Made by a program: the position numbers and the translations under genes. Shown piece after piece: positions 5,714 to 42,457 of a stretch of 64,000 nucleotides of DNA. The stretch is from Dehalococcoidia bacterium (GTDB lineage Bacteria; Chloroflexota; Dehalococcoidia; SHYD01): positions 269,638 to 333,637 of the forward strand of contig CBDDEI010000002.1 of NCBI GenBank assembly GCA_965226775.1. The letters run 5' to 3'. Positions within the stretch are counted from its first letter, which is position 1. Each line of letters begins with the position of its first letter. The notes below the pieces were generated by a model. The model was not told the origin of the DNA and did no database searches. It was given only the letters and a program-made list of their open reading frames with translations.

Positions 5714-5789
5714 GCGGGTGTAGCTCAGCTGGCAGAGCGCTTGCTTCCCAAGCAAGATGTCGAGGGTTCGAATCCCTTCACCCGCTCCA
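5714..5789 (+). tRNA. tRNA-Gly (CCC)
   Basis: GCGGGTGTAGCTCAGCTGGCAGAGCGCTTGCTTCCCAAGCAAG...GGTTCGAATCCCTTCACCCGCTCCA. The 7-bp acceptor GCGGGTG/CACCCGC, anticodon loop TTCCCAA, T-loop GGTTCGAATCC and encoded CCA are all present. Confidence 0.85.
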
Positions 5790-8196: not shown

Positions 8197-8219
8197 ATAC
8201 GGACACTGGACACCGAGCC

Positions 8220-18381: not shown

Positions 18382-18391
18382 GGACGCTGGA

Positions 18392-20782
18392 ATGAGCCTG
18401 GCTCCCGCGGCGCCCTCGACCGCTTTGCCCTTGCTGCGTCTGGGCTTGGCCCTCACCGCGGCGGTGGCCTTTGCTCTGGACGCCGAGCCCTTCCACCGTT
18501 ACCTGCGGGCGGTAGCCATCACCCCGGAGCTGCTCCAGACGGAAGCGCCTCCCGGCTACCTGCGGGTCACGGCCTACACCCTCCTCGGCTTCGTCCTACT
18601 GCTCATCGCTGCGCAACGGCGTTTGGGAGCGCGTTCTCTCCACGTCGCCTTAGGCATCGGGTTTCTGCTCGTTCTGGTTCCCAACCTCCTAGCATCATTC
18701 AGCGCGCCTCACTACGGCGTGGACAGCGTCTCCTACACCCGCTACGCCACCGGCCTGCTGCTGGAGGGGAAGCACCCCTACGCCGATTTCGAAGCCGCCG
18801 AGGCGCTCCAACGCTACCCCGTCCGGGACACCGCGGTCACGTACACCAACGACGGCAGGCTGATGAACGTATTCAACTACCCGCCGGGGTCTTTCCTGAT
18901 CCTCGCCCCCCTCTACGTTTTGGGCGACATCGACCCGCGCTGGCTCTACGGCCTCGCGTTCTTCTTTATCGCGGCGATGCTGCTCTGGCGCGCGCCTCCC
19001 TCGCTGCGACCGCTGGCGCTGGGCTTTCTCGGCTTCCACCAGTTCTTCGCATTGTGGGCCGTTCCTGGCGGCGTCGCCGAGCCCCTCTGGATGGCCCTGC
19101 TGCTGGTCGCGTGGCTGCTGCGCGATCGCCCAGTGCTGGGCGGCGCAGTCCTTGGGTTGGCGCTGGCGGTGAAGCAATTCGCCTGGTTCTTTTACCCTTA
19201 CTACCTCATCATCGAGTACCGGGAGCGCGGCTTGCGGGCGGCTATTCAGGCAGGGGCCATTGGAGCAGGCGTCTTCGCGCTAGCCAACCTCCCCTTCCTG
19301 GTCACCGACCCCGCCGCGTGGCTGGAAGGCATAACCGCGCCCTTAACGCAGCCGCTGCCGCCCATTGGCATAGGCATCGCCCGCTGGGCCACCCTGGCCT
19401 TCCCGGACGTACCCAAGATGGCGTACACCTTGCTCCTAGGCGGCGGGATTATCGCAGCGCTGGGCGTCTTCTGGCGTTGGGGCGGGCGGTATCCGGCGCT
19501 CACCTTTGTGCTGCCCTGGCTGCCCCTCTGGTTCTCCTGGCGCTGTCTTTCGGCCTACTTCTACCTGATGCCCATCATGGTGCTCTTTGTCTTTTTTGAG
19601 CAGTGGCGCAAGGAGGATACGGCCGTGGCCGCCCAAAGTACGGCTCCCCTGCTCCTGCCGTTGTCGCTGCTCCTCGCCTCCCTGGTAGCGTTCGCACTGC
19701 ACAGCACCTACCAGGCCTACTTCCTGTGGGAGCTGCTGGTGAACCAGGGGATGCCTCTGTCGCAGCTCCAGGACTTGGCGCTCTTGAGCATGCTCCTGAC
19801 CACCCTAGGGCTGAGCCTTATCGTGACCGCAGCGATGGTGCGGGATCGCTCGCCCAGTGCCCTGCGCTTCTCCCTCTTCGGCAGCGGGCTGCTGCTGGCG
19901 CTGGTAACCCTGGCGGGTATTCAGAGTGCGCAGACCTACCAGGTGGACGCTGGACTCTCACCCCACTACGCTGCGGAGCTCCTACTGCGCGGCGAGAACC
20001 CCTACGAGGCATGGAACATGGAAGCCGCCGCGGCTCGTTTCAAGGTGCCGGAAGCGCTGCTGGTAACCGCTCCCTCTAAGGACGCCTTTGGCTATCCCGC
20101 GGGGTCTTTCCTACTCCCCGCGCCCCTTGTTGCCCTGGGCCTCCCGAACCTGCGCCTTCTCTATGGCTTTGCCCAGATAGCCCTGGTGGTGTTCGCCTTG
20201 GCGCGCGCGCCGCAAGCGCTCAAACCCATCACGCTTGCTGTGGCCACAACCATTGCGGGCCTGAGCTTCCTCTTTGCGGGCGAGGGCTACAACGACATCC
20301 TGCTGGCGTGGCTGCTGCTGGGCGCATGGCTCCTGCGCGACCGCCCGCTGCTGGGCAGCCTGGCGCTGGGATTAGGGCTGGCATTCAAGCAGGCGGCCTG
20401 GCCCTTCCTGCCCTTTTATCTCATTGTGTTGCACCGCCGTCACGGCCTCGCGCCCGCCCTCCGGGGAGCTGCCCTCTCTCTCGGACTCTTCCTGCTGCTG
20501 AACGCGCCCTGGGCGCTTACCGCTCCCGATGCGTGGGCCCGCGGACTGCTGGCTCCCGCCTCGGTGGCTACGCTCCCCATCCCGGCGCTGCTAGCCTTGA
20601 CGGGCTTTGGTCTTGCCATCGCCGTCTTCTACCGCTGGCGCAGCCTCTGGGAGCGCGCTGCGCTGGCCCTGCCCTGGGCGCCGCTATGGTTCACTTGGGC
20701 CAGCCAGTTCAGCCTCTTCCACACGCTGCCCCTAGTCTTCCTGACCGCGGCCGTGTCCGACAACCGCGAGGAGGAAGTATGA
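18392..20782 (+). CDS. membrane protein with tandemly duplicated DUF2029/GT87-like GT-C module
   Basis: 796 aa. The two halves are clearly homologous: LLEGKHPY/LLRGENPY; YPPGSFLILAPL/YPAGSFLLPAPL; AWLLRDRPVLGGAVLGLALAVKQFAWFFYPYYLI/AWLLRDRPLLGSLALGLGLAFKQAAWPFLPFYLI. Confidence 0.6.
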   Translation: MSLAPAAPSTALPLLRLGLALTAAVAFALDAEPFHRYLRAVAITPELLQTEAPPGYLRVTAYTLLGFVLLLIAAQRRLGARSLHVALGIGFLLVLVPNLLASFSAPHYGVDSVSYTRYATGLLLEGKHPYADFEAAEALQRYPVRDTAVTYTNDGRLMNVFNYPPGSFLILAPLYVLGDIDPRWLYGLAFFFIAAMLLWRAPPSLRPLALGFLGFHQFFALWAVPGGVAEPLWMALLLVAWLLRDRPVLGGAVLGLALAVKQFAWFFYPYYLIIEYRERGLRAAIQAGAIGAGVFALANLPFLVTDPAAWLEGITAPLTQPLPPIGIGIARWATLAFPDVPKMAYTLLLGGGIIAALGVFWRWGGRYPALTFVLPWLPLWFSWRCLSAYFYLMPIMVLFVFFEQWRKEDTAVAAQSTAPLLLPLSLLLASLVAFALHSTYQAYFLWELLVNQGMPLSQLQDLALLSMLLTTLGLSLIVTAAMVRDRSPSALRFSLFGSGLLLALVTLAGIQSAQTYQVDAGLSPHYAAELLLRGENPYEAWNMEAAAARFKVPEALLVTAPSKDAFGYPAGSFLLPAPLVALGLPNLRLLYGFAQIALVVFALARAPQALKPITLAVATTIAGLSFLFAGEGYNDILLAWLLLGAWLLRDRPLLGSLALGLGLAFKQAAWPFLPFYLIVLHRRHGLAPALRGAALSLGLFLLLNAPWALTAPDAWARGLLAPASVATLPIPALLALTGFGLAIAVFYRWRSLWERAALALPWAPLWFTWASQFSLFHTLPLVFLTAAVSDNREEEV

Positions 20783-22239
20783 CCAGCGCGGGCTTCGCCT
20801 TCCGTGCGCTTCTTGGTAGCGCCGCCCTCTACCTGTTCGCGGCCTCGGCGTTTGCCGGCGCACTCGGCTACCCACTAGATGACGCCTGGATTCATCAGAC
20901 GCTGGCGCGCAATCTGGTGGAGCGCGGCGAGTGGTCTATCAACCCCGGCACGCCCGCGGCCGTCTCCACCGCGCCGCTGTGGACGCTGCTGCTGACCCCG
21001 GCCTATCTGCTCCCCATCCCTCCGTTAGCCTGGACCTACCTTCTGGGAGGACTAGCCCTAGCCTGGGTTGCCTGGGAGACCTTTAAGCTAGCCACCCTCC
21101 TCTTTCCCGATGATGAGGAGTCGCCCGGCATGGCTGCGCTGCTGGTGCCCTGCGAATGGCACCTCATCTGGGCAGGCTTCTCCGGCATGGAAACGCCTCT
21201 CTTTGCCGCGCTCAGCCTTGCGGTGCTGCGGATGGGCCTGCAGCAAACTGCGCTCAACCTCCGGCACTGGGGCGTGCTGCTCACCCTGCTTGTCCTCACC
21301 CGCCCAGAAGGCTTGCTCCTAGGCGCACTCATTCTCGTGTGGCGGTTCTTCCGTCCGAGCGCGCCGGAAGGGTTGGTCGAAAGGCTGCGGCCGGTAATCC
21401 CCCTAGTCGTCGCGCTCCTGGCGCTGGGTGCCCTGAACCTCGCGTTGAGCGGCCAGCCTCTGCCCAGCACTCTTGTTGCGAAGAACGCCGCCTACGGCTT
21501 CGGCTTCGACCTCGCCGACTACGGGCGGTTCATTGCAGACGCTACGTTGGAGCTGTCCAGCGGCCTGCTCTTGCTGCTCATACCAGGCATCCTGTACACC
21601 ATCTGGCGGCGACTCCCCGGCGGCCATAGCGACGGCTGGTTGCCGCTGCTGTGGGTAGTGGGCCTGATGGGCGCGTACGCCGTCTGGCTACCGGCGGTCT
21701 ACCATCATGGCCGCTATCTTATGCCGTTGATGCCCCTGCTCCTCATCTATGGTGTCCAGGGCAGCCGCGCGCTGCTGCAAGCGCGCCCGTATCCGCTGCT
21801 TGCCGGCGTGGCCCCGTGGATCATGGCCGCTCTGGTTGCGATGTCCTGGCTGCGGGGCGCGGATATCTATCGAGAAAACGTGGCGTTCAGCCAAAAGCAG
21901 CAAGTGACCCTCGCCCGCTGGATTAGCCAGAATACGCCAGAGGACGCCCGCATCGCCGGCCACGACATCGGTGCACTGGGCTACTTTAGCCAGCGACCGA
22001 TCATAGATATGGCGGGGCTAGCAACCCAGGAACTCACCAACAGCCCCAAAGACGTCGAGCGCATCCTGGCTGTGCTTCAGGAGCAGGGTGTCACGTATCT
22101 GCTGGTGCAGCCGAGCTGGTTCCCGTCCCTTTACGCGCGCCTCCAAGCCGAGCCTAACGTTGAGGTGGTTCAGGAGGGACCCAAGACCATTCACGGGCCG
22201 TCTTACAGCTTCCAAGTGCTGCATTTTGGGGAGGATTAG
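20779..22239 (+). CDS. polytopic membrane protein, putative GT-C glycosyltransferase
   Basis: Start reassigned to ATG 20779 (GAGGAAG RBS; ATGA overlap with the upstream stop). The ORF-track start 20308 is antisense-overlapping garbage. ...LGYPLDDAWIHQTLARNLVERGEWS... plus multiple TM helices and a C-terminal soluble domain. Confidence 0.5.
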   Translation: MTSAGFAFRALLGSAALYLFAASAFAGALGYPLDDAWIHQTLARNLVERGEWSINPGTPAAVSTAPLWTLLLTPAYLLPIPPLAWTYLLGGLALAWVAWETFKLATLLFPDDEESPGMAALLVPCEWHLIWAGFSGMETPLFAALSLAVLRMGLQQTALNLRHWGVLLTLLVLTRPEGLLLGALILVWRFFRPSAPEGLVERLRPVIPLVVALLALGALNLALSGQPLPSTLVAKNAAYGFGFDLADYGRFIADATLELSSGLLLLLIPGILYTIWRRLPGGHSDGWLPLLWVVGLMGAYAVWLPAVYHHGRYLMPLMPLLLIYGVQGSRALLQARPYPLLAGVAPWIMAALVAMSWLRGADIYRENVAFSQKQQVTLARWISQNTPEDARIAGHDIGALGYFSQRPIIDMAGLATQELTNSPKDVERILAVLQEQGVTYLLVQPSWFPSLYARLQAEPNVEVVQEGPKTIHGPSYSFQVLHFGED

Positions 22240-22269
22240 TCAAACGCTGCAGTAAGTGCGCCGCGTCTC

Positions 22270-22300
22270 TTGACGCAGGTTGGGGAGGTAGCTCTACAAT
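22270..22300 (+). promoter_or_regulatory. candidate sigma70-like promoter for flp pilin gene
   Basis: TTGACG (22270-22275), a 19-nt spacer, then TACAAT (22295-22300). Located about 115 nt upstream of the pilin start. Confidence 0.3.
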
Positions 22301-22415
22301 AATCCATCGAGTTACGAGTATCAGGACCGGATAGCACATCTATACCCCCTGTATGATAAATGGAATTGTCCTTGTGCTTGGCGCTCGAAATCTATTGGAA
22401 GGGAGTAAGAGGGCT

Positions 22416-22565
22416 ATGCATTCCCTACTACGAAGGGAAGAAGGACAAGGTCTAGTTGAGTACGGGTTGATCATCTTCCTGGTTGCAATCGTAGTGATTG
22501 CCATTCTGGTACTGCTCGGCCCGCAGATTGGCGCCATCTTCAGCGGCATTACCGCCTCTATCTAG
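22416..22565 (+). CDS. flp: Flp/Fap family type IVb pilin
   Basis: MHSLLRREEGQGLVEYGLIIFLVAIVVIAILVLLGPQIGAIFSGITASI. It has the G/XXXXEY prepilin-peptidase motif, a hydrophobic helix, and a strong SD GGAAGGGAG upstream. The ORF-track start 22353 was shortened. Confidence 0.75.
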   Translation: MHSLLRREEGQGLVEYGLIIFLVAIVVIAILVLLGPQIGAIFSGITASI

Positions 22566-22663
22566 CCAATGCGTGGTGATTGCCCGGCTAGTACTCCTTG
22601 GCGCACCAACTGGCTCCAAGTCCATTAACATCACCGCATCCATCTAGCCAATTTGATAGGTAT

Positions 22664-22703
22664 TCAGAGGCGTCAGGTTCTACTCGTTAGTCCTGACGCC
22701 TCT
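22664..22703 (+). terminator. hairpin downstream of flp (13-bp perfect stem)
   Basis: CAGAGGCGTCAGG - 14-nt loop - CCTGACGCCTCTG. No strong U tract. Confidence 0.45.
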
Positions 22704-22825
22704 GCTGTACTCACACACTTCTCTCATCGCCGGCATGAGCTCGCTGTGACCAGACACCCCTTCGCAATAACCGACCCTCCTTCACTGCTCCCCGAACCAC
22801 GGATCAGCTCGACCGCCTGCACTCT

Positions 22826-24451
22826 ATGAGCGTCACACCCGCACCCCAACCGCCTCCTAGCGCCAGCGCAGAGGGTCGCTTGTCCCAAGAGCACGCCAGC
22901 GCGCTGCCCCTCAAGTACATCGTTGGGTTAGCCGTAGCAGCCCTGGCGGTGCTCGTCCTGGCCGCCCTCGCTTTCCATGACCCCGGCTACATGGACGCCT
23001 ACTACGCGTACCACGTGGCTGCCAACTTGGCCGCCGGCCGCGGCTTTACCGAGGACTTCATCTGGATCTACCTGACCAACCCGCCTTCCCTCTCGCATCC
23101 CAGCCATCTCTACTGGATGCCGCTAGCAAGCCTGCTAGCCTACCCCGCGCTCCTGCTCTCGGGCGAGCACTTTCGCGCGGCCCAAGCGCCCTTCCTGATC
23201 CTCAGCGCTGCGGCTGTCGTCACCACGGCGCTGCTCGCCCGGCAGCTGCTGCCCGGAACCTTCCGTCCTCTCGCGGCGGCGCTCCTCACCCTCTTTGCGG
23301 GCTACTACTTTGTCTACTGGCTGGCCGTGGATGCCTTTGGCGCGTTCACGCTGGCCGCACTCCTGGCATTTGTCGCGACGGCCGGCCTCCTGGAGGAAGA
23401 CCGGCCACTATCTCGCACGGTCCTGCTGAGCGCGCTCTTGGGCCTTGCAACCGCCGCCGCCCACCTGGCGCGCGCAGACGGCCCGCTGCTGCTCGCCGCC
23501 TGCAGCCTTGTCCTCATCGCATCTCAGCGACGGCGCGCTCCCCAGACCTGGCTCCTTCCCCTAGGCATCGCGAGCGCCGCCTATCTGCTGGTGATGCTCC
23601 CCTGGTTTCTCCGCAACTTGGGCGTGAGCGGCGCACCCCTGCCCAGCGACGGCCTGCAGACCCTCTTCCTCCGCGAGTACAACGATATCTTTTCCTACGG
23701 GCTTGCCCTAGACCTCCAGCACTACCTGGGAGAGGGCTGGGCAGCTATCCTAAGCGGCAAAGCTGTGGCCGCGCTGCGGAACCTGGGCGTCCTCTTTGGG
23801 CTGCAATACTGGCTGGTACCCTTTGCCGCCATGGGCTGGTGGGCGCTACGCGGTCGTCCTGTTATGCGCGCGCCCTTGCTCTACGGCGCGTTGCTCTACG
23901 GCGTCATGACCCTCCTCTTCACCTACCCAAGCAGCCGCGGGGCCATGCTCCACTCCAGCGTTGCGCTGCTGCCTTGGTTGAGCATCGCCGCGGTGCGGGG
24001 CATTGAGGTTGCGGTCTACTGGGCCGCGGCTCGCCGGCCCCACTGGAAGCCCGCCCTCGCTACCCGCAACTTCACCCTTCTGGCTCTCGTGGCCGCCGTG
24101 GCCGCATCGGGCTACGCCTGGTACGACCAGGCCCGCGGCTGGAGCGAGCAGGCCCAGACCTATCAGTCGCTTGCGCCCGCCCTCAACGCCGACGACCCAT
24201 CTGCCGTGCCTATGGTGCTTAATGCTCCCGCCTGGTGGTATGTATCCCGCCGCTCGGCTATGCTAACCCCCAGCAACGGCCCGGACGCCGCGCTGGCCGC
24301 AGCCGCCCGCTTTGGCGCGACCCATCTCATCCTCGAGCCGGCGCGACCCACCGCTTGGGAAGGCTTCGGCAAGGGCAGCGACCCGCGGTTCAGCCTGGTG
24401 TATGCTAGGGACAACTACGAGATCTATCGACTAAGCCCTGTACAAAAATAA
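22826..24451 (+). CDS. ArnT/PMT-like GT-C membrane glycosyltransferase (paralogue of 14158..15732)
   Basis: 541 aa. ...FHDPGYMDAYYAYHVAANLAAGRGFTEDFIWIYLTNPPSLSHPSHLYWMPL... aligns with the corresponding segment of gene 14158..15732. Confidence 0.65.
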   Translation: MSVTPAPQPPPSASAEGRLSQEHASALPLKYIVGLAVAALAVLVLAALAFHDPGYMDAYYAYHVAANLAAGRGFTEDFIWIYLTNPPSLSHPSHLYWMPLASLLAYPALLLSGEHFRAAQAPFLILSAAAVVTTALLARQLLPGTFRPLAAALLTLFAGYYFVYWLAVDAFGAFTLAALLAFVATAGLLEEDRPLSRTVLLSALLGLATAAAHLARADGPLLLAACSLVLIASQRRRAPQTWLLPLGIASAAYLLVMLPWFLRNLGVSGAPLPSDGLQTLFLREYNDIFSYGLALDLQHYLGEGWAAILSGKAVAALRNLGVLFGLQYWLVPFAAMGWWALRGRPVMRAPLLYGALLYGVMTLLFTYPSSRGAMLHSSVALLPWLSIAAVRGIEVAVYWAAARRPHWKPALATRNFTLLALVAAVAASGYAWYDQARGWSEQAQTYQSLAPALNADDPSAVPMVLNAPAWWYVSRRSAMLTPSNGPDAALAAAARFGATHLILEPARPTAWEGFGKGSDPRFSLVYARDNYEIYRLSPVQK

Positions 24452-31459: not shown

Positions 31460-31535
31460 GGGGCTATAGCTCAACTGGGAGAGCGCAGCGTTCGCAATGC
31501 TGAGGTTAGGGGTTCGAGCCCCCTTAGCTCCACCA
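31460..31535 (+). tRNA. tRNA-Ala (CGC)
   Basis: GGGGCTATAGCTCAACTGGGAGAGCGCAGCGTTCGCAATGCTGAGGTTAGGGGTTCGAGCCCCCTTAGCTCCACCA. G3:U70 identity pair, anticodon loop TTCGCAA, encoded CCA. Confidence 0.85.
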
Positions 31536-32429: not shown

Positions 32430-32694
32430 AGACTAGTCAACAAACAGTCTCCCTACACCCCAGCAGATCAACGTCCCTCCCGGTGTCGCGGGCCGCGCGA
32501 ATCCCTGCCAGCCCGCCCCGACAGCCGCCTGAGGCCCGTTCTTCACCAGCCTATTGAAGTGAACGCCATGGCCGGCAAGACGCCCAAGAGTCAACGAAGG
32601 CATCAATGGAGACCGTCCCCGAGAATGCAGGCAGGAAGCCGGTGCTCCTTTCAGGTGGCAACCCTCAGATTCCAAAGTTGAAAAGTTGTTCTAC

Positions 32695-33954
32695 ATGAAT
32701 AGCAAGGTTCTCAAATGGCGTTTCGTCTTAGCTGTGGGAGCGCTCGTGCTCCTCGCGGCGGTTGCTGGCTGCGTCGGCGGCGCATCGCAGGCGCAGGACG
32801 ATGTGGGGCCGCTGCGGCTTGGGGTGCTGCTGAACTTCAGCGAGGGCGCGCCGGCCAAGGCCAAGGACCGCCAACGGGCCTTTGACCTAGCGGTGAAGCA
32901 CGTCAACCAGGGCGGCGGCGTGTTTGGGCGGCCCGTAGAGGTGGTGGTGGGAGACTCGACGCTGGACCCGGCGAAGGCGGTGGAGGCGGCGCGGCGTATG
33001 GTTGAAGTGGAGGGCGTTCACGCAATCGTCGGCCCCAGCTCCAGCGCCAACTCGCTGATGGTGGTGAAACAGGTGACCGGCCCAGCGAGGATCCCCATCG
33101 TCAGCCCCTCGGCAACCTCACCAATGCTCACGGCCGTGGAGGACAACGACTTCTTCTTCCGCACCACCCTCTCAGACAGCGCCCAGGGGCCCGTGCTGGC
33201 GCAAGTGACGCGGGAGCAGGGGTACGACAACGTGGGGCTGGTCTATCGCGACGACGCTTGGGGGCAGGGCCTCTTCAAGGCCTTCCAAGCCGCGTGGACG
33301 GGGCAATTGCTGGCCGTGGCGGTTGAACCAGGGCAGGACACCTACCTCCCCCAACTCCGGGAAACGGCGAAAGGGGGAGCGCAAGCCCTGGTGGTGATCA
33401 CCTTTGAAACCGAGGCTGCGCAGATTCTTCGGGAAGCCCTCGAGCACGGATTGTACAACCAGTTCACCTTCGGCGACGCGCTGAAGAGTCCCGACCTGGC
33501 CATGGCCGTCGGCGGTGGGCGCCTGGCGGGGATGCGCGGCACGGCGGGGGCCGGGGCGGGTGGCCTAGCGACTCCGGCGGCGACGGCATGGGAAGCAGCC
33601 TTTTTGGCGGAGTACGGGAGCCTCCCAACCTTCTCCTACGTGCAGGAGACGTACGACGCCACGATTGCCCTGGCGCTGGCAGCCCAAGCGGCGGGCAGCG
33701 TGAACGGCGCGGCCATCCGCGACCAACTTCGCCGCGTTGGCGGAGGGCCCGGCGAGGCGACGCTACCGGGCCAGCAGGGGGTTGCCGATGCGCTGCGCGT
33801 CCTGTCGGAGGGCGGCGAGGTGGACTACGAGGGCGCCGCCAGCAGCTTGGACTGGGACGACAACGGCGACCTGCGCCAGGGCCACATCGGGATCTGGCGC
33901 TTCACAGAAGACGACCAGATTGAAGAACTAGGAGTGACCCCCTTCTCGCAGTAG
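32695..33954 (+). CDS. ABC transporter substrate-binding lipoprotein, LivK/Peripla_BP_6 family
   Basis: Lipobox LLAAVAGC. ...RLGVLLNFSEGAPAKAKDRQRAFDLAVKHVNQGGGVFGRPVEVVVGDSTLDPAKAVEAARRMVEVEGVHAIVGPSSSANS.... An alternative start is at 32686. Confidence 0.8.
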   Translation: MNSKVLKWRFVLAVGALVLLAAVAGCVGGASQAQDDVGPLRLGVLLNFSEGAPAKAKDRQRAFDLAVKHVNQGGGVFGRPVEVVVGDSTLDPAKAVEAARRMVEVEGVHAIVGPSSSANSLMVVKQVTGPARIPIVSPSATSPMLTAVEDNDFFFRTTLSDSAQGPVLAQVTREQGYDNVGLVYRDDAWGQGLFKAFQAAWTGQLLAVAVEPGQDTYLPQLRETAKGGAQALVVITFETEAAQILREALEHGLYNQFTFGDALKSPDLAMAVGGGRLAGMRGTAGAGAGGLATPAATAWEAAFLAEYGSLPTFSYVQETYDATIALALAAQAAGSVNGAAIRDQLRRVGGGPGEATLPGQQGVADALRVLSEGGEVDYEGAASSLDWDDNGDLRQGHIGIWRFTEDDQIEELGVTPFSQ

Positions 33955-34358: not shown

Positions 34359-35576
34359 ATGAGTTCCCCTTTCGCTCAGAAAGTGCTTTGTGTTCTTTAT
34401 TCCGATCCAGTGGCAGGATTTCCTCCGGACTATGCCCGCGAAAGCATACCCACCCTCACCCAGTATCCAGACGGCCAGACTTTACCCTCACCAGCCTCCA
34501 TAGACTTCACCCCTGGCCACCTTCTGGGATCTGTTTCGGGCGGGCTTGGGCTGGAGAGGTTCTTGACTGAACGGGGACATAGGTTCGTCGTAACGGCGGA
34601 CAAGGATGGACCCGATTCCGTTTTCGAAAGAGAACTGCCCGATGCCGATATAGTCATCTCTCAACCCTTCTGGCCCGGGTACCTCACCGCCGAGCGCATT
34701 GAAAAGGCTCCGAACCTCAAATTAGCCATAACCGCTGGCATTGGGTCGGACCATGTCGACCTTCAGGCAGCCATCGGCAGGAACATCACTGTGTGTGAAG
34801 TGACTTGGTGCAACAGCACAAGCGTCGCGGAGCACGCGGTCATGCAGATGTTGGCGCTGGTCAGGGACTACATTCCCCAGTACGGTTGGGTGGTCAGGGG
34901 CGGTTGGAACATTGCGGACGCCGTTTCCAGGTCCTACGACATTGAGGGAATGGACGTGGGTGTAGTGGCGGCCGGCAGAATTGGCTTAGCGGTCCTAAGA
35001 CGAATGAAGCCTTTCGACGTCACTCTCCACTACACCGACAGACATCGGCTTGCCACCGATGTCGAGCAAGAGCTTGGCCTGACGTTCCACGAAACCGTTG
35101 AGTCGCTGGTCAGTGTGTGTGATGTGGTCAGCATCCATTGTCCTCTCCATCCCGAGACTGAGCATATGTTCAACGATGCTCTGATTAGCAAGATGAAGCG
35201 CGGGTCCTATATCGTCAACACCGCACGCGGCAAAATCTGTGACCGGGACGCCATCGTCAGAGCTCTGGAAAGCGGCCAACTGGCAGGGTATGCGGGCGAT
35301 GTTTGGTTCCCTCAGCCGCCTCCCAATGATCACCCCTGGAGGGCCATGCCCAACCACGCCATGACTCCCCACACCTCGGGCACTTCGCTTTCAGCCCAAG
35401 CCCGCTACGCAGCAGGAGTCCGTGAGATTCTGGAATGCTGGTTGGATGGACGGCCGATTAGGGAGGAGTACCTGATTGTCCAGGGAGGCGCCCTTGCTGG
35501 AACAGGAGCCCACTCATACAGCGAAGGGGATGCTACAGGCGGTTCGGGGGAAGCGGCAAAGTTCACAGCCGGCTAG
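34359..35576 (+). CDS. fdh: NAD-dependent formate dehydrogenase
   Basis: 405 aa. KVLCVLYSDPVAGFPPDYARESIP... N-terminus. Rossmann GxGxxG VGVVAAGRIGLAV. ...PQPPPNDHPWRAMPNHAMTPHTSGTSLSAQARYAAG... This is the classic FDH catalytic His/Arg context. Confidence 0.9.
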   Translation: MSSPFAQKVLCVLYSDPVAGFPPDYARESIPTLTQYPDGQTLPSPASIDFTPGHLLGSVSGGLGLERFLTERGHRFVVTADKDGPDSVFERELPDADIVISQPFWPGYLTAERIEKAPNLKLAITAGIGSDHVDLQAAIGRNITVCEVTWCNSTSVAEHAVMQMLALVRDYIPQYGWVVRGGWNIADAVSRSYDIEGMDVGVVAAGRIGLAVLRRMKPFDVTLHYTDRHRLATDVEQELGLTFHETVESLVSVCDVVSIHCPLHPETEHMFNDALISKMKRGSYIVNTARGKICDRDAIVRALESGQLAGYAGDVWFPQPPPNDHPWRAMPNHAMTPHTSGTSLSAQARYAAGVREILECWLDGRPIREEYLIVQGGALAGTGAHSYSEGDATGGSGEAAKFTAG

Positions 35577-35709
35577 GCAGACTGATCGAAGGAGGGCTCC
35601 ACGCTTCAGTCGGGCTTTTCAACGCCCACTTATCGAGGGCCTCTAGGACGATATGCCCGCCGTATCCGTCGGCCGTCACCAGTCTTGAAGGAAGGGGGGT
35701 GAAGGAGCC

Positions 35710-36648
35710 ATGACAATTACGCATGAACGAGCTCAGAGCATTGTTGAAGCGATAGATCCGCATCTGCAGGTTGTGTCTATGGCATCTACTATTGGAAGCT
35801 TCACAAACGATGCGCGAATCCTTGAGTGCCAGACGACTGCCGGGAGCCGAGTCTGCCTGGTCGCTAAGTTCTTGGTTGATAAATCCGCATTAGCTTCGCG
35901 GATTGCAGCAGTGTCGTTTCATGCCGCAATTCTCGCACGGGAGCATGGGGTACCAGTACCCGAGCCTTTGCTCCTTGACGAGACCGGAGAAGTCCTGGGA
36001 GTTCCTGGTGTCGTGTCGCGCTTTGTCCAAGGGAGACAAGTAGCAAATCCTAAGGATCCAGAGAGGTGGGCTGAGGACCTTGCCCGTCAGTTAGTCCAGA
36101 TTCATTCAATCCGTCCAGGAGAGAGGGACAAACCGTTCTTATTTGATGGAAACCACGAAACCCTCTATTTCACCAGGGGCGAATACCCAACGCTAATGGC
36201 AGGTCATCCACTGTCTGCTGACATACTTGATGCTGTTCGGGAACTTCAATCAGCGCTTGTGCCAACGCCTCCCGCGCTGGTCCATCTAGACTATTGGCAC
36301 GGCAACATTCTGTGGCGTCGCGGTCTGATTTCCGCTGTTCTGGATTGGGATTTTGCGGGATACGGGGACCCTTGCATTGATGTGGCTTACTTCAGAATGA
36401 ACATGTACTTGAGAGGCATCAAGGATGCAGCGGACTATTTCTTGAAGGCTTATGAAAGGCAGTCTGGTGAGGTTGTGAAGAACCTTGGATTTAGAGAATT
36501 GGCTGCAGCTGCTCAATGCCTGCCGTCCATACTCTGGATACCTATGAGCAGAGAGATGGTAGGCCCGCCAATTACTGATGAACGCGCCATAGCTCAGTAT
36601 GAGGAATTTGTCGCGGGCGCCTTGCAACGTGCTTATGAAGGGCGCTGA
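35710..36648 (+). CDS. aminoglycoside phosphotransferase (APH) family protein
   Basis: Brenner motif LVHLDYWHGNILW and DWDFAGYGDP. Confidence 0.8.
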   Translation: MTITHERAQSIVEAIDPHLQVVSMASTIGSFTNDARILECQTTAGSRVCLVAKFLVDKSALASRIAAVSFHAAILAREHGVPVPEPLLLDETGEVLGVPGVVSRFVQGRQVANPKDPERWAEDLARQLVQIHSIRPGERDKPFLFDGNHETLYFTRGEYPTLMAGHPLSADILDAVRELQSALVPTPPALVHLDYWHGNILWRRGLISAVLDWDFAGYGDPCIDVAYFRMNMYLRGIKDAADYFLKAYERQSGEVVKNLGFRELAAAAQCLPSILWIPMSREMVGPPITDERAIAQYEEFVAGALQRAYEGR

Positions 36649-36744: not shown

Positions 36745-37110
36745 TTAAAAGTTCTCAAATGGCGTTTCGTCTTAGCTGTGGGAGCGCTCGCGCTCCTCAC
36801 GGCGGTTGCTGGCTGCGGCGGCACATCGCAGGCGCCGGACGACGTGGGGCCGCTGCGGCTTGGGGGGTGCTGCTCCACTTCAGCGAGGGCGCGCCGGGCA
36901 AGGCCCAGGACCGCCAACGGGCCGTGGAAGACTCGACGCTGGACCCGGCAAAGGCAGTGGAGGCGGCGCGGCGCATGGTTGAAGTGGAGGGCGTTCACGC
37001 AATCGTCGGCCCCAGCTCCAGCGCTAACTCGCTAATGGTGGTGGAACAGGTGACCGGCCCGGCGGGGATCCCTATCGTCAGCCCCTCGGCAACCTCACCA
37101 ATCCTCACGG
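36745..37110 (+). pseudogene. decayed duplicate of the 5' end of the LivK-like SBP gene (compare 32712-33135)
   Basis: About 90% nucleotide identity, with a roughly 75-nt deletion and a frameshift. The ORFs 36739..37035 and 36693..37190 each cover parts of it. Confidence 0.6.
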
Positions 37111-37324
37111 CCAGGGATGGTGTCTCCAATCCACTTGTGCGTCAATTCACAATTAGAGTGCCTGGAAAGTCCGCGGCAGCTCGCTTTTAGTTTATGAGTC
37201 TTGTTAGACTGGAATGCTGATTGGCATAGTCTGCCTTTTGTCACTGACGAGTGCGCAATAAAGGCAACAACCTCTTGGAAGAATAAGAGCCATTACTAGA
37301 GTTCTTCCATAATTCGAGGAAAGG

Positions 37325-38344
37325 GTGGACGATGCACGAACCATGATAGATGAACTTACAACTGCAGTTGCTTCCTTAAATCGCTATATCTCACAGAATA
37401 GGAACGTGGATGAATGGTATGTGAGGCGTCTCCTTCGGGATATTGTTGTACCTCGACTGGACGAAGTGTTCCGAGAGGTATTCGCTGAGATTGACAAGTT
37501 CCATGATCTTGGAAAAGACGCCAAGGAGGTTATTCACTATACCAGCCTCGACATGCTAGTCTCAGTCCTTCGTGATAAAGCTGAAGAGAAAGAGGCTTTC
37601 GTCCGTATGAACGACTCCTTTCATCTCAATGATCCAGAAGAGGGACAGTATCTAGCCCGCCGTATCGAAGCAATCGACCAGTCCGGATGGTTCGGAGAAA
37701 AGAAGGACCTTCACGCGTATATTGCCTCGTTTATCCTCCCTGACGAAAAGAAGGACCAAGAACTACGAGATGAGGACAACCTCAAGTATTGGCTTGCTTA
37801 CGGACAACAAGGCAAAGGCTGCTCAATTAGGTTTCCTGTAAGCCACAATCGCTTTCGGCGGGTTCTCTACGGACAGCAGAAGGTGACTCGCACCTTGAAA
37901 CGCCTGGACCTGACATCATTGTGGAATTCCTTGAAGCCCTTAGCAACTAACCGAAACCAAGAGGTTAGCCGCACCGCCAGAGATATGCTTTCGGAGCTAA
38001 TCAGAAGGAACATCGCCCGAATCCTTTATCTGTACAAGGACGACGCCTACAAGTATGAACAGGAATGCAGAATGGTGAGGTCAGTCCTAGAAATCACTGA
38101 TGAAGATATCTTTTTCGAGCCACTGAAAGAACGGGACTCGCCACATAACATAAGACACTACTATCATGATAGCGACCTAAGCATTGACCATATTCTGGTT
38201 ACAGGAAGCTTAATCACATTAGGTCCCCTCGTTCCCCGTCCCTACAATGTGATGTATTACATCAACACGCTTTTGGGGAAAGCACACTTACGCGGGCCTA
38301 AGGTCAAGATCTCGAAAATACCTTACCAAGAACCTTGGCGATGA
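37325..38344 (+). CDS. hypothetical protein, DUF2971-like (HYTS...NDPxE motifs)
   Basis: 339 aa, low GC. ...VIHYTSLDMLVSVL...FVRMNDSFHLNDPEEGQYL...YIASFILP.... Convergent with, and overlapping the 3' end of, the JAB-E1 gene. Confidence 0.4.
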   Translation: MDDARTMIDELTTAVASLNRYISQNRNVDEWYVRRLLRDIVVPRLDEVFREVFAEIDKFHDLGKDAKEVIHYTSLDMLVSVLRDKAEEKEAFVRMNDSFHLNDPEEGQYLARRIEAIDQSGWFGEKKDLHAYIASFILPDEKKDQELRDEDNLKYWLAYGQQGKGCSIRFPVSHNRFRRVLYGQQKVTRTLKRLDLTSLWNSLKPLATNRNQEVSRTARDMLSELIRRNIARILYLYKDDAYKYEQECRMVRSVLEITDEDIFFEPLKERDSPHNIRHYYHDSDLSIDHILVTGSLITLGPLVPRPYNVMYYINTLLGKAHLRGPKVKISKIPYQEPWR

Positions 38345-39770
38345 GCCTCGCAAATCCACCCCTAGGCCTAGTAGACATCGGAGTCGGTTCCTGAAGGTAG
38401 AATGGAGCTACCCTGTCACCCTGCATGCGATGCTCTCGGAATGAGCAATGGGCCTCGCACTGCATATTGATAGTCCTTAAGTCCGCTGTGACAAACTGAT
38501 AGTCCTGCTGCTGTACAAGTGGCCACCAGTCTGGCGATAGAATATAGCGAATCATAAGATTAACTTCCATGGCGGCGACGCTCAAACTGAAGGGGAACAC
38601 ATTTTGATTTCTGTTCCGTTCTGACTCTGGCAAATTGCTAGTGTATGACGGATCGGAGAGAGAACCATCCAATTCCATAACGACGTTGCTTGAGTTGTAT
38701 TGACCGCTGCACCGCAGACATTGGTGAAAAGGCGTGACAAGGTGAGCCCGCCAATGTGCTGAAAACAACTTGTCCTTAGACGTATCTGTTTCTACTGAAA
38801 CTCCGCCGTCAATCACAGGAATCATATGAGCCTGAGCTATGTAGTTCAGCACATCACGTGGGAGTGGACGATCAACGCAGCTGAAGATGACATCGCAATC
38901 CAGGGCCGCACTATACGCCTCTTTGTCATGAATAGATTTTGGTAGTGCGATGATGTCAACGCTGTCCGCAGTAGCGTTCAGGCGTATTGCTTCGGAAGCG
39001 ATTTGCACTTTTTGCTTACCTATGTCCCTAGTCGTCGCGTAGAGCAGTCTATCGAGGTTGTGTTCTTCAACCTCATCGGGATCGATTAAGGTAATGCGAG
39101 TGACGCCTATCCGGGCCACGGCCTCCGCGACAATCGATCCCACACTACCAAGGCCTACAATGCCAACCCTTAAACGTGCGATGGTGCTTTGCACGTCGCG
39201 GCCCCACGTATCGAAAGTTCTCCTGAGAACTTCTTTACGCTCAGGTGGAGGTTCTACTTGGTCGTTAAAGTAGATTTGGTAGGACTTCGAACTGACAACC
39301 CGAGTTTTAGCACACGAATTGCGCCGCATCCCTTTGCCATCTCGTTGCCAGAAACGAGAACTCCAGTAGCCGTCACTACCGATGGTCAGCCCGACCAGTG
39401 GGAAGCCTGTCGCTCCAGCTGGATAGGCCAAGACATCTCGCTCAGCCTCGACGTCAGCATCACTCATGCTCTGCCAACCTGGTCCGGGGTGGCTGTGCAT
39501 AAAGGCCACACCCGCCTGTCTTTGACGAGCTGTGTTTATTGCCCGTGCTAAGTAATTAGGCTGGAAGCTGGCATTCCCGTGTAAGAGACGCTCGCCCTTT
39601 TGGGGGAGAAGAATCTCATACACAAGAGCCGTGTATCGTTGATTCCCGGTGGAAGGACGCCACAGGCCGAAGCACAAATCCTCCTGAAGGTCATTTCTCC
39701 TGTAGTGTTGCAGCAAGTGATCGCTTGAAGCAGAGTTCGCCTCCGCCGAAAGCGCCACCTCAAATTTCAT
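38304..39770 (-). CDS. JAB/MPN metalloprotease - ThiF/MoeB E1-like adenylyltransferase fusion protein
   Basis: Start set at MKFEV... (ATG 39770, ATGA overlap with the E2 stop). N-terminal domain YEILLPQ...FMHSHPGPGWQSMSDADVEAE is JAMM-like (E...HxH...S..D). C-terminal domain VGIVGLGSVGSIVAEAVARIGVTRITLIDPDEVEEHNLDRL... has the E1 Rossmann fold, plus a Cys-rich region CLRCSGQ. Confidence 0.7.
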   Translation of the reverse strand: MKFEVALSAEANSASSDHLLQHYRRNDLQEDLCFGLWRPSTGNQRYTALVYEILLPQKGERLLHGNASFQPNYLARAINTARQRQAGVAFMHSHPGPGWQSMSDADVEAERDVLAYPAGATGFPLVGLTIGSDGYWSSRFWQRDGKGMRRNSCAKTRVVSSKSYQIYFNDQVEPPPERKEVLRRTFDTWGRDVQSTIARLRVGIVGLGSVGSIVAEAVARIGVTRITLIDPDEVEEHNLDRLLYATTRDIGKQKVQIASEAIRLNATADSVDIIALPKSIHDKEAYSAALDCDVIFSCVDRPLPRDVLNYIAQAHMIPVIDGGVSVETDTSKDKLFSAHWRAHLVTPFHQCLRCSGQYNSSNVVMELDGSLSDPSYTSNLPESERNRNQNVFPFSLSVAAMEVNLMIRYILSPDWWPLVQQQDYQFVTADLRTINMQCEAHCSFREHRMQGDRVAPFYLQEPTPMSTRPRGGFARLIAKVLGKVFSRS

Positions 39771-40138
39771 ACGTCCTTCCAAATTTTCCGTAGGTGTTCG
39801 TTGATGTAGCCGTACATATGCTTCGTCGGTAGCTGGTCCCAAAGCTGACCCGGCGGCCTGCTCATAGCCAACCATGCACATCCAGACACTTCGTAGGTTT
39901 GTCCCGGCCCCCCCCTACCATCGGCAATTGGAGGGCTAACGTGGAGCCAATGAGGGGGATATTCGGGGTACCCCTCATCTTGGAAGCTGACACCTACTAG
40001 AACTGGCGTACCCTTATGTGAGCCAGTTTCGATGGTGTAATTGAATGCTACTACGACTCCCATTCCGGAATCGAACGTCTGGGTTTCGTAACCAAGGGAT
40101 TCTAATTCTTCTCGTACTCGGTTTGCACTATCGGACAT
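39767..40138 (-). CDS. E2 (UBC)-like ubiquitin-conjugating protein homologue
   Basis: 123 aa. ...YPEYPPHWLHVSPPIADGRGGPGQTYEVSGCAWLA... has the YPxxPP and His...Cys spacing reminiscent of the UBC fold. Translationally coupled to the E1 fusion. Confidence 0.5.
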   Translation of the reverse strand: MSDSANRVREELESLGYETQTFDSGMGVVVAFNYTIETGSHKGTPVLVGVSFQDEGYPEYPPHWLHVSPPIADGRGGPGQTYEVSGCAWLAMSRPPGQLWDQLPTKHMYGYINEHLRKIWKDV

Positions 40139-40146
40139 TCCATTCC

Positions 40147-40380
40147 CTATGCCACGTCAGTTGCACCTTGAGGTATCGTTATGAACACTTTGTCTTCCTC
40201 AAAATTTACCCAGTCCTCGGGCTTATAGAGGTGCTTGTCCCCTTGGAGCAGATAATCCTCTGGCTTCCCGGCTCCGTGCCTTTTGCTATCTCCGTCGCCG
40301 CGTTTGTCTACATCGACTTTGATAAGAACTCCGTTCACCATGATCCGCTTTTGCACGACGTTACTTGCTTCAGCCACCAC
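40147..40380 (-). CDS. small beta-grasp/ubiquitin-like protein candidate
   Basis: 77 aa. GTG start with AGGAGG 4 nt upstream. ...IMVNGVLIKVDVDK... is a ThiS/MoaD-like start. It ends ...IPQGATDVA with no terminal GG. It lies 8 nt upstream of the E2-like gene. Confidence 0.4.
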   Translation of the reverse strand: MVAEASNVVQKRIMVNGVLIKVDVDKRGDGDSKRHGAGKPEDYLLQGDKHLYKPEDWVNFEEDKVFITIPQGATDVA

Positions 40381-40683
40381 AGACCTCCTGCCAAGAGTGC
40401 AGACACTTTGAGGCTCGCTGCCACCAATACGTTCGCGACCCAGGTTTCGTACATTACGACCTCTTCAGATTCATAAGCCATAATACCACGAGGCCCTTCT
40501 TCAGAGCGAAGGCCCTGGTCTACCACCTAGGCCAGATGCATCCGCGGGCAGGTAGGGGGTCTGGTTGAGGGCCGGTGCATCTTAGCGTCTATATCCACCG
40601 CGGCGAATATCTCCAGCCACCGGGCTTGGTCTCCACTCATCTGCGGTGGGACTGGAAAGGGCAGGCGACGCAGGCCGAGCGTT

Positions 40684-41474
40684 CTAGGGGCCCGTAGCGG
40701 GCGGCCCAGAGCGGCTTGGTTCCCACTTGAAGAACCTTACGGCAATCACCAAACCGGCCAGTAGCCAGCCAACCAAGGCCATCAGATGGGCAAACTCAAA
40801 ACCTGCGCCGGTTTCAAAGGGGTTAAAGGACGTGTGGAGGGCCAGCGCGAAGTGCCGGATGGGAAAGAGATCGGCGAAAGAGGTAAGCCATGGCGCGTCC
40901 CGCAAGGGGACAAACACGTCTGATATGAAGAGCAGCGGCAGGATGGAGGCTTGGACAATGGCCGGCGCCGCGTCGGCGTTGGGTATTAGCGCCGTGACGG
41001 CCAGGCCAAGAGTGCAGAAGGCCGCTGCCCCAATAATAAGGGTCACTAGAAAGGCGGGTATGGTGTTAGTAGGCGGGTCCACACCGTAGAAGAGCACCCC
41101 CGCGTAACGATGGCGGCCAGCAGCAGCGCCACCAATACGGAGTGGAGAACCTTCCCGAAGAGCAATGACCAAGCGGGCAGCGGTGTGCCGCGAACGCGCT
41201 TAAGCAATCCCGCGTCCCTGGAGAAGGCGACCCCCATGGCCACGTTGGTGTAGCAGGCGCCAATAACCGACATGGCTACTATGGCCGGCACGTAGAAGGT
41301 TGACGAGCTGATGGTCCCCCCTGGGACAGCTAGCTCACGGTTGCCGAAGAGCAGGTTAAAGATAACAAGGAACATGAGGGGAAAGACAAAGGTAAAGAAG
41401 GCCGCCGCAGGGTTGCGCCAGAAGGCGGTGTTCTCATACTTGACCTGCCTCAAAGCCAGGACAAAGGCGTTCAT
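40684..41474 (-). CDS. ABC-2 type transporter permease (frameshifted near 41080-41110)
   Basis: Two overlapping ORFs (41046..41474 and 40684..41172) together give a typical six-helix ABC-2 permease. The start overlaps the ATPase stop (ATGA). Confidence 0.6.
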
Positions 41475-42457
41475 TGCTGCGTGTCTACCGCCTCTGAGGA
41501 TTCGGCAAGCCGGACGAAGAGGTCTTCCAGCGATGGGCGGGATACCGACATCTCCTCCAGTTCAAGGCCCTGCTCCACGGCCCAACTCGTGAGCCGGTAC
41601 AGGGTAGACGTAGGGGTGAAAGTCACGGCGGTGTATTGGCCGTTGGGTTCCCTGGGGCCAACAGTCAGGTCCTCTGGCAGCGGGGGCGCTCCGGCGGCTA
41701 GCTTGAAGCGTATGGTAGTCGCGCCGCTGTTCTGCAGCAGCTCGCTGGGAGTTCCTTGGGCGACAATCTCGCCATGCACCATAATTGCCGCCCGGTCGGC
41801 CAAATGCTCGGCCTCGTCCATGTAGTGCGTGGTGAGCACCACCGTCTTGCCCAGGTTCCGAAGGTTGCGAATCATTTCCCAGGCGCCGCGGCGAGCTGAG
41901 GGGTCAAACCCCGTAGTAGGCTCGTCAAGGAACAGCAGCTCCGGGTTACCAGAGAGTCCGATGGCGACGTCCAATCTTCTCTGCTGACCGGTGGAGAGTC
42001 GCCTCGCCCGGATACTTCGTTGCTCCGTCAGACCCGTAACGCTCAGAACCTCCTCCAAAGGCAGCGGGTTGGGGTAGTAGCCACGGAAGAGGTTCACGGT
42101 CTCCTCCACGTTCAGGTACGGTTGTACTCCCGTTGTCTGGAGGACTATGCCAATGCGCTCCTTCAGGCTGCGGTGGTTTCCACTTGGATCGTACCCCAGA
42201 ACTGAAATATCCCCTGCGGTCCTGTCCAGGTAGCCCTCCAGTATCTCCATGGTTGTGGTCTTCCCCGCGCCGTTGGGCCCTAGGAGGGCAAAGACCTCTC
42301 CCATGGAAACTTGCAGGTCTATACCTCGCACGGCTTCCACCGTCCCGTAGGACTTGCGGAGGCCGCGAACCTCAATGGCCAAGGGGGCGGGGTGCGGAGT
42401 CTTGATAGTCAAAGCGGACGTAATGTTAAGGGGGATGGCAGACCTTGTCCAGCACAT
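41471..42457 (-). CDS. ABC transporter ATP-binding protein (DrrA-like)
   Basis: Walker A GPNGAGKTT. Signature LSTGQQRRL. Walker B LFLDEPTTGFD. H-loop TTHYMDEAE. Confidence 0.9.
   Translation of the reverse strand: MCWTRSAIPLNITSALTIKTPHPAPLAIEVRGLRKSYGTVEAVRGIDLQVSMGEVFALLGPNGAGKTTTMEILEGYLDRTAGDISVLGYDPSGNHRSLKERIGIVLQTTGVQPYLNVEETVNLFRGYYPNPLPLEEVLSVTGLTEQRSIRARRLSTGQQRRLDVAIGLSGNPELLFLDEPTTGFDPSARRGAWEMIRNLRNLGKTVVLTTHYMDEAEHLADRAAIMVHGEIVAQGTPSELLQNSGATTIRFKLAAGAPPLPEDLTVGPREPNGQYTAVTFTPTSTLYRLTSWAVEQGLELEEMSVSRPSLEDLFVRLAESSEAVDTQQ

Follow-up and report, generated by a model that had tools for sequence, protein, structure and literature searches.

A 64,000-nucleotide (nt) stretch of a Dehalococcoidia bacterium genome (assembly GCA_965226775.1, contig CBDDEI010000002.1, positions 269,638 to 333,637 of the forward strand; hereafter the window) was found to carry, at positions 37325 to 40380, a cassette of four genes. 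These encode a ubiquitin-like tag, an E2-like protein, a fusion of a JAB/JAMM peptidase with an E1 adenylation domain (JAB-E1) and a DUF2971-like protein. The cassette is foreign DNA, a horizontally acquired low-GC island. We consider it probable that it represents an uncharacterised family that is sister to the Type I Bub (6E.1) systems, in which the DUF2971 protein would be a toxin regulated by the conjugation module or a substrate of it. The cassette is homologous to Type I Bub but lacks three of its defining features, namely a DUF6527 gene, an obligatory fusion of tag and E2, and a terminal glycine on the tag. An earlier note, made from the sequence alone, had proposed a conjugation cassette of the Bil/6E type. 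The match of JAB-E1 to BubCD and the BubA-like fold of the tag family bear out the 6E (Bub)-like part of this proposal; the cassette is not Bil-like.

The Type I Bub operon consists of BubAB, BubCD and BubE, with structures available as PDB 9ea4, 9ea8, 9eae and 9eav (Ye, Gong, Chambers & Corbett, bioRxiv 10.1101/2024.11.21.623953). In the Citrobacter system, the JAB peptidase cuts a tag-E2 precursor after the terminal Gly of the tag, the E1 requires the crossover-loop residue Tyr370, the E2 requires Ser333, and the tag ends up on lysines; beside its serine, BubB has an invariant His at +2 and an Asp (S333/H335/D299). According to the same authors, the DUF6527 serine protease BubE is present in all Bub operons and CapH/CapP-type regulators in 31% of them (bioRxiv 10.1101/2024.11.21.623953). 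For each of the three conjugation proteins of the window, or for their families, a Bub protein was the best match among solved structures.

Gene organization of the cassette

The features of the locus are as follows (aa, amino acids; ORF, open reading frame).

40384..40389, minus strand: Shine-Dalgarno sequence AGGAGG 5' of the tag gene, from the sequence and kept in the relatives L005 and L006
40147..40380, minus strand: tag gene, ubiquitin-like protein of the multiubiquitin-type beta-grasp family, 77 aa, GTG start, from the ORF list
40276..40347, minus strand: indel-damaged part of the tag gene, from DNA and protein alignment with relatives
39767..40138, minus strand: gene of the E2-like (UBC-fold) protein, 123 aa, from the ORF list
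38304..39770, minus strand: JAB/JAMM-E1 fusion gene, BubCD-like, 488 aa, starting at an internal ATG of a 525-aa ORF
39276..39770, minus strand: JAB/JAMM peptidase domain, about aa 1-165, with E30, H92, H94, S103 and D106
38421..39215, minus strand: E1 adenylation domain, about aa 186-450, with GxGxxG at 206-211, R241, D300, zinc-type C351/C354/C438/C442 and Tyr376
37325..38344, plus strand: DUF2971-like gene, predicted effector of ADP-ribosyltransferase fold, 339 aa, Pfam DUF2971
38304..38344, both strands: convergent 3'-end overlap of the JAB-E1 and DUF2971-like genes, 41 nt

The four genes were all present with the coordinates, lengths and motifs given in the earlier note, together with the AGGAGG, the 8-nt spacer that separates the stop codon of the tag from the ATG of E2, and the ATGA overlap that joins the E2 and JAB-E1 genes. 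A GTG preceded by AGGAGG does open the tag ORF, but close relatives align to a second GTG (40377), which lies 6 nt after the Shine-Dalgarno sequence and gives 76 aa; judging from this alignment, it is the probable true start. Homologues of JAB-E1 begin at a common M-[KRS]-F-E-V, which confirms the 488-aa start. The GC content of the module is 50.2%, against 60.3% for the window, so that the AT enrichment noted before was borne out. This is the lowest value of any 3-kb stretch, and only 0.4% of window stretches of equal length are as GC-poor. Promoter and terminator scans of 36.6-41.2 kb gave counts at or under shuffled expectation. A repeat search revealed no direct repeats flanking the module, and a duplicated LivK-like gene fragment, described below, was its only find.

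JAB-E1 is most closely related to BubCD

Concerning the 488-aa fusion protein, residues 186-411 matched Pfam ThiF with an E-value of 6.5e-33. In a phmmer search against PDB, the closest solved relative by a wide margin was Citrobacter BubCD (9ea4; E-value 8e-27, residues 68-333), and a profile of the family detected BubCD at 2.4e-28. The identity to BubCD is about 24-30%, and the alignment spans both domains, covering the JAMM motif and the adenylation domain. The JAMM motif reads E30...H92-S-H94...S103..D106, and E30, H92, H94 and D106 align with the active-site residues E28, H91, H93 and D104 of the BubCD peptidase. The E1 part carries GxGxxG, NLDR and CxxC. In 21 homologues, E30, H92, H94, S103, D106, G206-x-G-x-x-G211, R241, D300, C351, C354, C438 and C442 are invariant.

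We examined the crossover region between C354 and C438 in the homologue alignment and found no conserved cysteine. Tyr376 (D-P-S-Y) is invariant in the 21 homologues and is also kept in plasmid relatives of 35-38% identity, in which Tyr358 is not kept. Tyr376 is the putative counterpart of Tyr370 of BubCD. The earlier note had regarded the fusion of JAB and E1 as a departure from known systems. Type I Bub is defined by just this fusion, which is therefore no novelty.

Homologues of the 488-aa protein in the database number more than 3,000, and the best of them are 65-88% identical to it; an exact search for the window product itself (P0001) returned no record, and a phage collection contained no match to JAB-E1. 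In PADLOC, one of the checks proposed in the note, E1-E2 models matched residues ~190-320, which is the adenylation core only. NCBIfam gave only weak ThiF/MoeB matches, with scores of at most 75 against cut-offs of 150-650.

The tag family has a beta-grasp fold and an invariant C-terminal alanine

Sequence searches of PDB with the tag, the E2-like protein and the DUF2971-like profile gave nothing significant, and the folds of tag and E2 therefore had to be predicted. The AlphaFold2 model of a tag homologue (P0249; predicted local distance difference test score, pLDDT, 84.3) displayed a beta-beta-alpha-beta-beta-beta topology with a flexible tail. Its top matches in Foldseek were all ubiquitin-like, with Citrobacter BubA (9ea8_B) first, followed by BilA, ubiquitin and multi-ubiquitin proteins, at a probability of about 1. 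Matches of the tags to Pfam Multi_ubiq were sub-threshold; PF14452 is precomputed on some tag homologues, and an actinobacterial counterpart is annotated by NCBI as 'multiubiquitin domain-containing protein'. Structure prediction of the small products, as suggested in the note, thus placed the family tag nearest BubA and gave the E2-like protein a UBC fold. The window tag itself, which the note had taken for an intact 77-aa beta-grasp protein, has lost its helix, as described below.

Tag sequences were aligned in two sets, 80 from the loci and 112 from the database. The consensus is F-x-F-K-V-N-G...L-A-x-x-I-L-E-L-A-K...P-E-D-Y-x-L-Q-G-D-K...F-I-T-I-P-x-x-P-T-P-V-A. The C-terminal Ala is invariant in the 112 sequences, which end in T-x-V-A followed by the stop codon. 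The QG residues after which the JAB had been proposed to cleave vary within the family while the terminal T-x-V-A is conserved, and we therefore reject cleavage at QG. Most tag ORFs stop directly after the terminal Ala, and the majority of tags therefore require no trimming. Exceptions are seen in a few relatives, where V-A is followed by a short tail, as in L047 and L074, where tags are in tandem, or where the tag is fused in frame to the E2. The fusion occurs in a minority (P0173, L001 at 7366-8004, and 11 of 107 representative clusters).

We also noted loci in which tandem tag-E2 pairs, or two to three tag genes, precede a single JAB-E1 gene (L008 687-2260; L010 8512-10004; L025 8501-10004; L012, L020 and L037 upstream of 9621). 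Among the database homologues, P0241-P0245 are double-tag proteins of 151 aa.

The E2-like protein carries an invariant serine

The 123-aa E2-like protein has 207 database homologues and contains a YPEYPP motif, and a distant member matches Pfam Prok-E2_E at 9e-4. The earlier note had read a His...Cys site from it. This was not supported: homologues have R, H, Q, D or E in place of C86 (SGCAW), and the family has no conserved cysteine. In a set of 42 diverse E2 representatives, down to 23% identity, Ser93 and Trp100 are the only invariant residues, and Ser93 is the sole invariant nucleophile. D73, H63 and H66 are highly conserved. Ser93 precedes a short helix after the sheet; the order of predicted secondary structures would place it where the catalytic cysteines of E2 enzymes sit. 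The sequence around it is S93-R-P-P-G, without a His at +2. We regard Ser93 as the candidate catalytic residue of this UBC-fold protein. Its invariance, together with the absence of a conserved cysteine, points to oxyester chemistry as in Bub rather than to a His...Cys thioester.

The E2 profile also matches short repeats (profile positions ~16-58, up to 18 times) in proteins of 750-3800 aa (P0406, P0409, P0438, P0442, P0445 and others), which probably reflect a recurring beta-hairpin motif rather than homology to E2.

A DUF2971-like protein is the conserved partner

The fourth gene, which converges on the operon and overlaps its 3' end, was confirmed as a DUF2971-like gene and proved to be a conserved partner. 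Its product scored 25.9 bits for Pfam DUF2971 (PF11185), where 22 is the cut-off; of 60 relatives, 39 match the same family. Conserved in this family are H71-Y72-T73, N102-D-P-x-E-G, Y159, Y182 and E245-x-E247. In published work, DUF2971 is assigned an ADP-ribosyltransferase fold like that of DarT/AbiGi, marked by a conserved Tyr and an ExE motif, and Aristaios is described as a single-gene DUF2971 antiphage system (PMC12522546, PMC11381338). The window protein shares with these a score above the Pfam cut-off and the Tyr and ExE motifs. It differs in being longer, with a helical N-terminal region, and in belonging to a clade tied to the trio of tag, E2 and JAB-E1 genes. In PADLOC and NCBIfam, it gave a weak PDC-S31 match only. 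The papers that we found on DUF2971 do not mention a link to the trio.

Among 82 non-redundant loci (81 fetched loci and the window), the DUF2971-like gene adjoins the E1 gene in 62. The two genes converge in 52 loci and share a strand in 10; 44 of the convergent pairs have overlapping 3' ends, with 35 nt as the commonest overlap. This DUF2971 clade was seen only beside the trio in the loci examined. Based on the conserved linkage to the E1 gene and on analogy with the control of CBASS by Cap2, the protein is most likely a toxic effector controlled by the conjugation module, or a conjugation substrate.

Several variants of this arrangement were observed. In a Dehalococcoidia sub-clade (L040, L044, L051 and L052, ~11500-13100; L069, 12398-15149), the DUF2971-like gene is on the same strand as E1 and is followed by a second E2-like gene on the opposite strand; a second copy of the cassette, in fragments, is present in L069. 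A TIR/SEFIR-domain protein replaces the absent DUF2971-like gene in L013 (11548-12468), and a set of a ~920-aa DNA methylase, a PIN protein and a ~935-aa ResIII helicase does so in L046, L054, L056, L058 and L062; L056, L058 and L062 have CapH/CapP-like genes upstream. These replacements suggest exchangeable partners. In L002-L004, which represent one widely sampled contig family, an ORF convergent with E1 (9424-10920, minus strand) is annotated in one part as DDE_Tnp_ISL3 and matches the DUF2971-like protein in another; an insertion or a fusion may have occurred at the partner gene.

Distribution and genomic context

In a scan of one genome per species, relatives were found in 327 species. 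Homologues of 55-88% identity, arranged in the same order, were present in 80 loci fetched from many phyla, where the order tag, E2, JAB-E1 is essentially universal. The genes are thus far more than chance ORFs. The hosts are metagenome-assembled genomes of Chloroflexota, Latescibacterota, Binatia, Acidobacteriota, Gemmatimonadota, Nitrospirota, Proteobacteria, Actinomycetota and others; judging from record titles, many of them appear to come from sponge microbiomes.

Apart from the DUF2971-like proteins, no flanking protein cluster occurs in more than 10 loci. In several loci the cassette lies between hsdM and hsdS/hsdR of a type I restriction-modification system. Pairs of a helix-turn-helix (XRE) protein and an M78/IrrE peptidase, which are CapH/CapP-like, are directly upstream in 9 loci. 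Other recurrent neighbours are a DNA methylase-PIN-helicase set, DarT, a TIR protein in the DUF2971 position, Schlafen/AlbA, Fic, serine recombinases and transposases. Distant trios without DUF2971 are found on actinobacterial plasmids beside AbiE and HigA modules. This genomic context indicates that the cassette is probably defensive.

DUF6527 was absent from the window ORFs and from the recurrent flank clusters. When 148 small ORFs flanking about 48 loci were compared with Pfam, they matched 79 families, and the 25 commonest of these did not include DUF6527, a result that holds for those 25 families and not for the other 54. L090, a true Type I Bub locus carried by a Rhizobium plasmid, has DUF6527 directly after the BubCD gene.

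Comparison with known systems

The cassette resembles Type I Bub in its fused JAB/JAMM-E1 with the same active-site residues and a single-domain, homodimer-type E1, in an E1 crossover loop that is free of cysteine and has a conserved tyrosine, and in a UBC-fold E2 with an invariant serine and no cysteine. Further shared features are a multiubiquitin-type beta-grasp tag, an occasional tag-E2 fusion, CapH/CapP-like regulators in some loci, and a location in mobile or defence regions. On the other hand, the window cassette has no DUF6527 (BubE) gene, tag and E2 are usually encoded by separate genes and not as a BubAB fusion, and the tag ends in Ala where that of Bub ends in Gly. In addition, the E2 has no Ser-x-His, the E1 keeps a four-cysteine zinc site, and the conserved fourth gene encodes the DUF2971-like predicted ADP-ribosyltransferase.

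Bil (BilABCD, formerly 6C/CEHH) likewise combines a ubiquitin-like protein, E2, JAB and E1 in defence islands and attaches its tag to proteins. The Bil E1 is a multidomain protein with an inactive and an active adenylation domain and a mobile catalytic-Cys domain, in contrast to the single ThiF domain fused to JAB observed here. The cysteine E2 of CEHH type, separate JAB and Gly C-terminus of Bil are likewise not found. Membership in Bil was rejected on the single-ThiF E1 with its fused JAB and on the E2 without a conserved Cys.

Type II CBASS Cap2/Cap3 (and 6A-MBL) share an E1 adenylation domain of the same superfamily and a JAB peptidase as regulator. In these systems an immune effector or sensor is under the control of the conjugation machinery, and we propose the same logic for the DUF2971 protein. 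Cap2, unlike the proteins described here, is an E2-E1 fusion with cysteines, and the conjugated moiety is the CD-NTase itself and not a ubiquitin-like protein. Membership in CBASS was rejected, as no CD-NTase or nucleotide-signalling gene is present in the window or the recurrent flanks.

The four-gene arrangement was not found in the searchable literature; a prior description outside it, for example in subscription-journal comparative-genomics papers, is possible. PADLOC and NCBIfam contain no model for it.

Proposed mechanism and alternatives

From gene content, folds, homology, residue conservation and genomic context, we propose the following chemistry, target, DUF2971 role and defence function, the individual steps being modelled on homology to Citrobacter Bub. 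The E1 half of the 488-aa protein would adenylate the terminal alanine of the tag, which would then be transferred as an oxyester to the crossover-loop Tyr376, subsequently to Ser93 of the E2-like protein, and finally to a target lysine. The JAB half would cleave whatever follows the terminal Val-Ala in fused or extended precursors, remove conjugates, or both. Together, the conjugation module and the DUF2971 toxin would constitute an anti-phage or anti-mobile-element system. Taking into account that the fused architecture, the cysteine-free loop with a tyrosine and the UBC fold with an invariant serine are common to both, the same oxyester relay as in Bub is the most economical assumption. That the cassette is a distinct, undescribed defence system, in which a cysteine-free Tyr-to-Ser oxyester cascade with an Ala-terminal tag switches an ADP-ribosyltransferase toxin on or off, and which has spread by horizontal transfer to more than ten phyla, often nested in type I restriction-modification systems, is a broader claim that we advance tentatively, as possible rather than probable.

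Several points weigh against a kinship with Bub that extends to mechanism and function. The correspondence of Ser93 with BubB S333 and of Tyr376 with BubCD Y370 rests on position and conservation, and the Ser-x-His of BubB is not found in the window E2, which has S-R-P-P. A C-terminal alanine is unusual for E1 substrates. Neither PADLOC nor NCBIfam gave a family-level match for tag or E2. The DUF2971-like profile finds no solved relative, its ADP-ribosyltransferase fold being taken from the assignment of DUF2971 in published papers. The authors of the Bub study could not demonstrate phage protection (bioRxiv 10.1101/2024.11.21.623953), and the family described here is known to us from sequences and predicted folds.

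With regard to function, JAB-E1 could also be a conventional sulfur-carrier activator of the MoeB/ThiF type that serves cofactor biosynthesis, a reading which the Pfam ThiF domain, the weak NCBIfam ThiF/MoeB matches and the MoeB-like CxxC...C zinc cysteines would fit. We consider this extremely improbable. The NCBIfam scores are far under the family cut-offs, the tag ends in VA and has no C-terminal Gly-Gly, and a fused JAB and an E2-like partner have no place in sulfur transfer. We looked for the biosynthetic genes with which such an activator would be sited, as the earlier note had envisaged, and no thiamine or molybdopterin genes were found nearby; the neighbours are defence and mobile genes, and the best solved relative is BubCD. 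The VA terminus, the scores, the neighbours and the BubCD match effectively refute the sulfur-carrier reading. The main alternative concerns the fourth gene: the trio and the DUF2971-like gene might be two independent defence genes that travel together, the trio tagging phage proteins as Bil does and the DUF2971 protein acting alone as Aristaios does. The single Aristaios gene indeed suffices, and the trio and the DUF2971 gene are convergent and therefore not co-transcribed. A DUF2971 gene is not adjacent in 20 of the 82 loci, where a TIR protein or the methylase-PIN-helicase set may stand in its place, and the actinobacterial plasmid relatives consist of the trio without DUF2971 altogether. 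These loci and plasmids, which also count against a fixed four-gene system, indicate that the trio can work with other partners or alone. On the contrary, adjacency in 62 loci from many phyla, a conserved 3' overlap that is most often 35 nt where other flanking families are each confined to at most 10 loci, and a DUF2971 clade seen only beside the trio all argue for a functional link. We thus regard independent action as unlikely, and prefer a sister family of Type I Bub with DUF2971 as its regulated toxin or substrate.

The tag gene in the window is damaged

In the window, the tag gene has undergone several deletions. Alignment of the DNA with L005 and L006 revealed a 9-nt deletion 5' of strand 1, followed by deletions of 11, 1 and 6 nt that shift the frame locally, so that the helix EKLPAEKVLEIAKEHGAMPG of relatives has become KRGDGDSKRHGAG. 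The deletions total 27 nt. The beta-grasp helix corresponds to residues 28-38 in the P0249 model and holds four near-invariant hydrophobic positions of the family. The five closest relatives (L005, L006 and L085-L087), whose E1 proteins are 79-88% identical to that of the window, have an intact tag in protein alignment. Because the tag gene has lost its helix, the local cascade is probably inactive or decaying.

A stronger claim is that the cassette in the window is a dead, decaying remnant and that nothing is conjugated in this organism. The 27 nt of deletions with a frame-shifted stretch fall in the tag gene alone while the five closest relatives are intact, the window contains no second tag gene, and damaged sequences lie nearby, namely the LivK-like fragment at 36748-37117 and the split ABC-2 permease at 40684-41474. 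In contrast, the genes of E2, JAB-E1 and DUF2971 have their full length, and none of the family-invariant residues has been lost from them. The reading frame of the tag also remains open, with strands 2-5 and the C-terminal TDVA kept, and a tag encoded elsewhere in the genome is possible. On balance we lean slightly towards the cassette being a remnant here.

Regions flanking the cassette

Directly to the left of the low-GC module, 36748-37117 (plus strand) is a decayed partial duplicate, with 91-95% identity and disrupted frames, of 32704-33140 (plus strand), the 5' part of the gene for a LivK-like substrate-binding protein at 32686-33954. The fragment may mark an old rearrangement or insertion border. 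Between the LivK-like gene and its fragment, 34359-36648 (plus strand, GC 52-58%) contains two genes that we take, from the look of their translations, to encode D-2-hydroxyacid/formate-dehydrogenase-like and aminoglycoside-phosphotransferase-like proteins. Given their intermediate GC content, they are possibly part of a larger acquired region. On the other side, an ABC-2-type permease gene at 40684-41474 (minus strand) lies just upstream of the module and follows the gene for the permease's own ATPase (41471-42457). It appears to be split into two ORFs, of 142 and 162 aa, that overlap in different frames, and is probably a frameshifted pseudogene.

Further away, a tRNA-Ala(CGC) gene lies at 31460-31535 (plus strand), about 6 kb to the left of the module, and a tRNA-Gly(CCC) gene at 5714-5789 (plus strand). 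Low-GC patches at about 2-3 kb, 25-27 kb and 29-31 kb of the window may be further islands. A long run of ORFs on the plus strand at ~7000-24000, with a GC content of 65-70% and an AT skew of -0.2 to -0.34, is unlike the rest of the window in composition.

Implications

For this genome the message is modest, a foreign cassette with a probably broken tag gene. Through the family as a whole, bacterial ubiquitin-like signalling reaches hundreds of uncultured species, many with record titles that point to sponge symbionts. To our knowledge, the Bub systems are the only ubiquitin-type cascades known to operate without cysteine. The family described here offers a second, independent set of sequences bearing on the oxyester mechanism, and as a sister family it would provide a concrete hypothesis for what cysteine-free cascades regulate.

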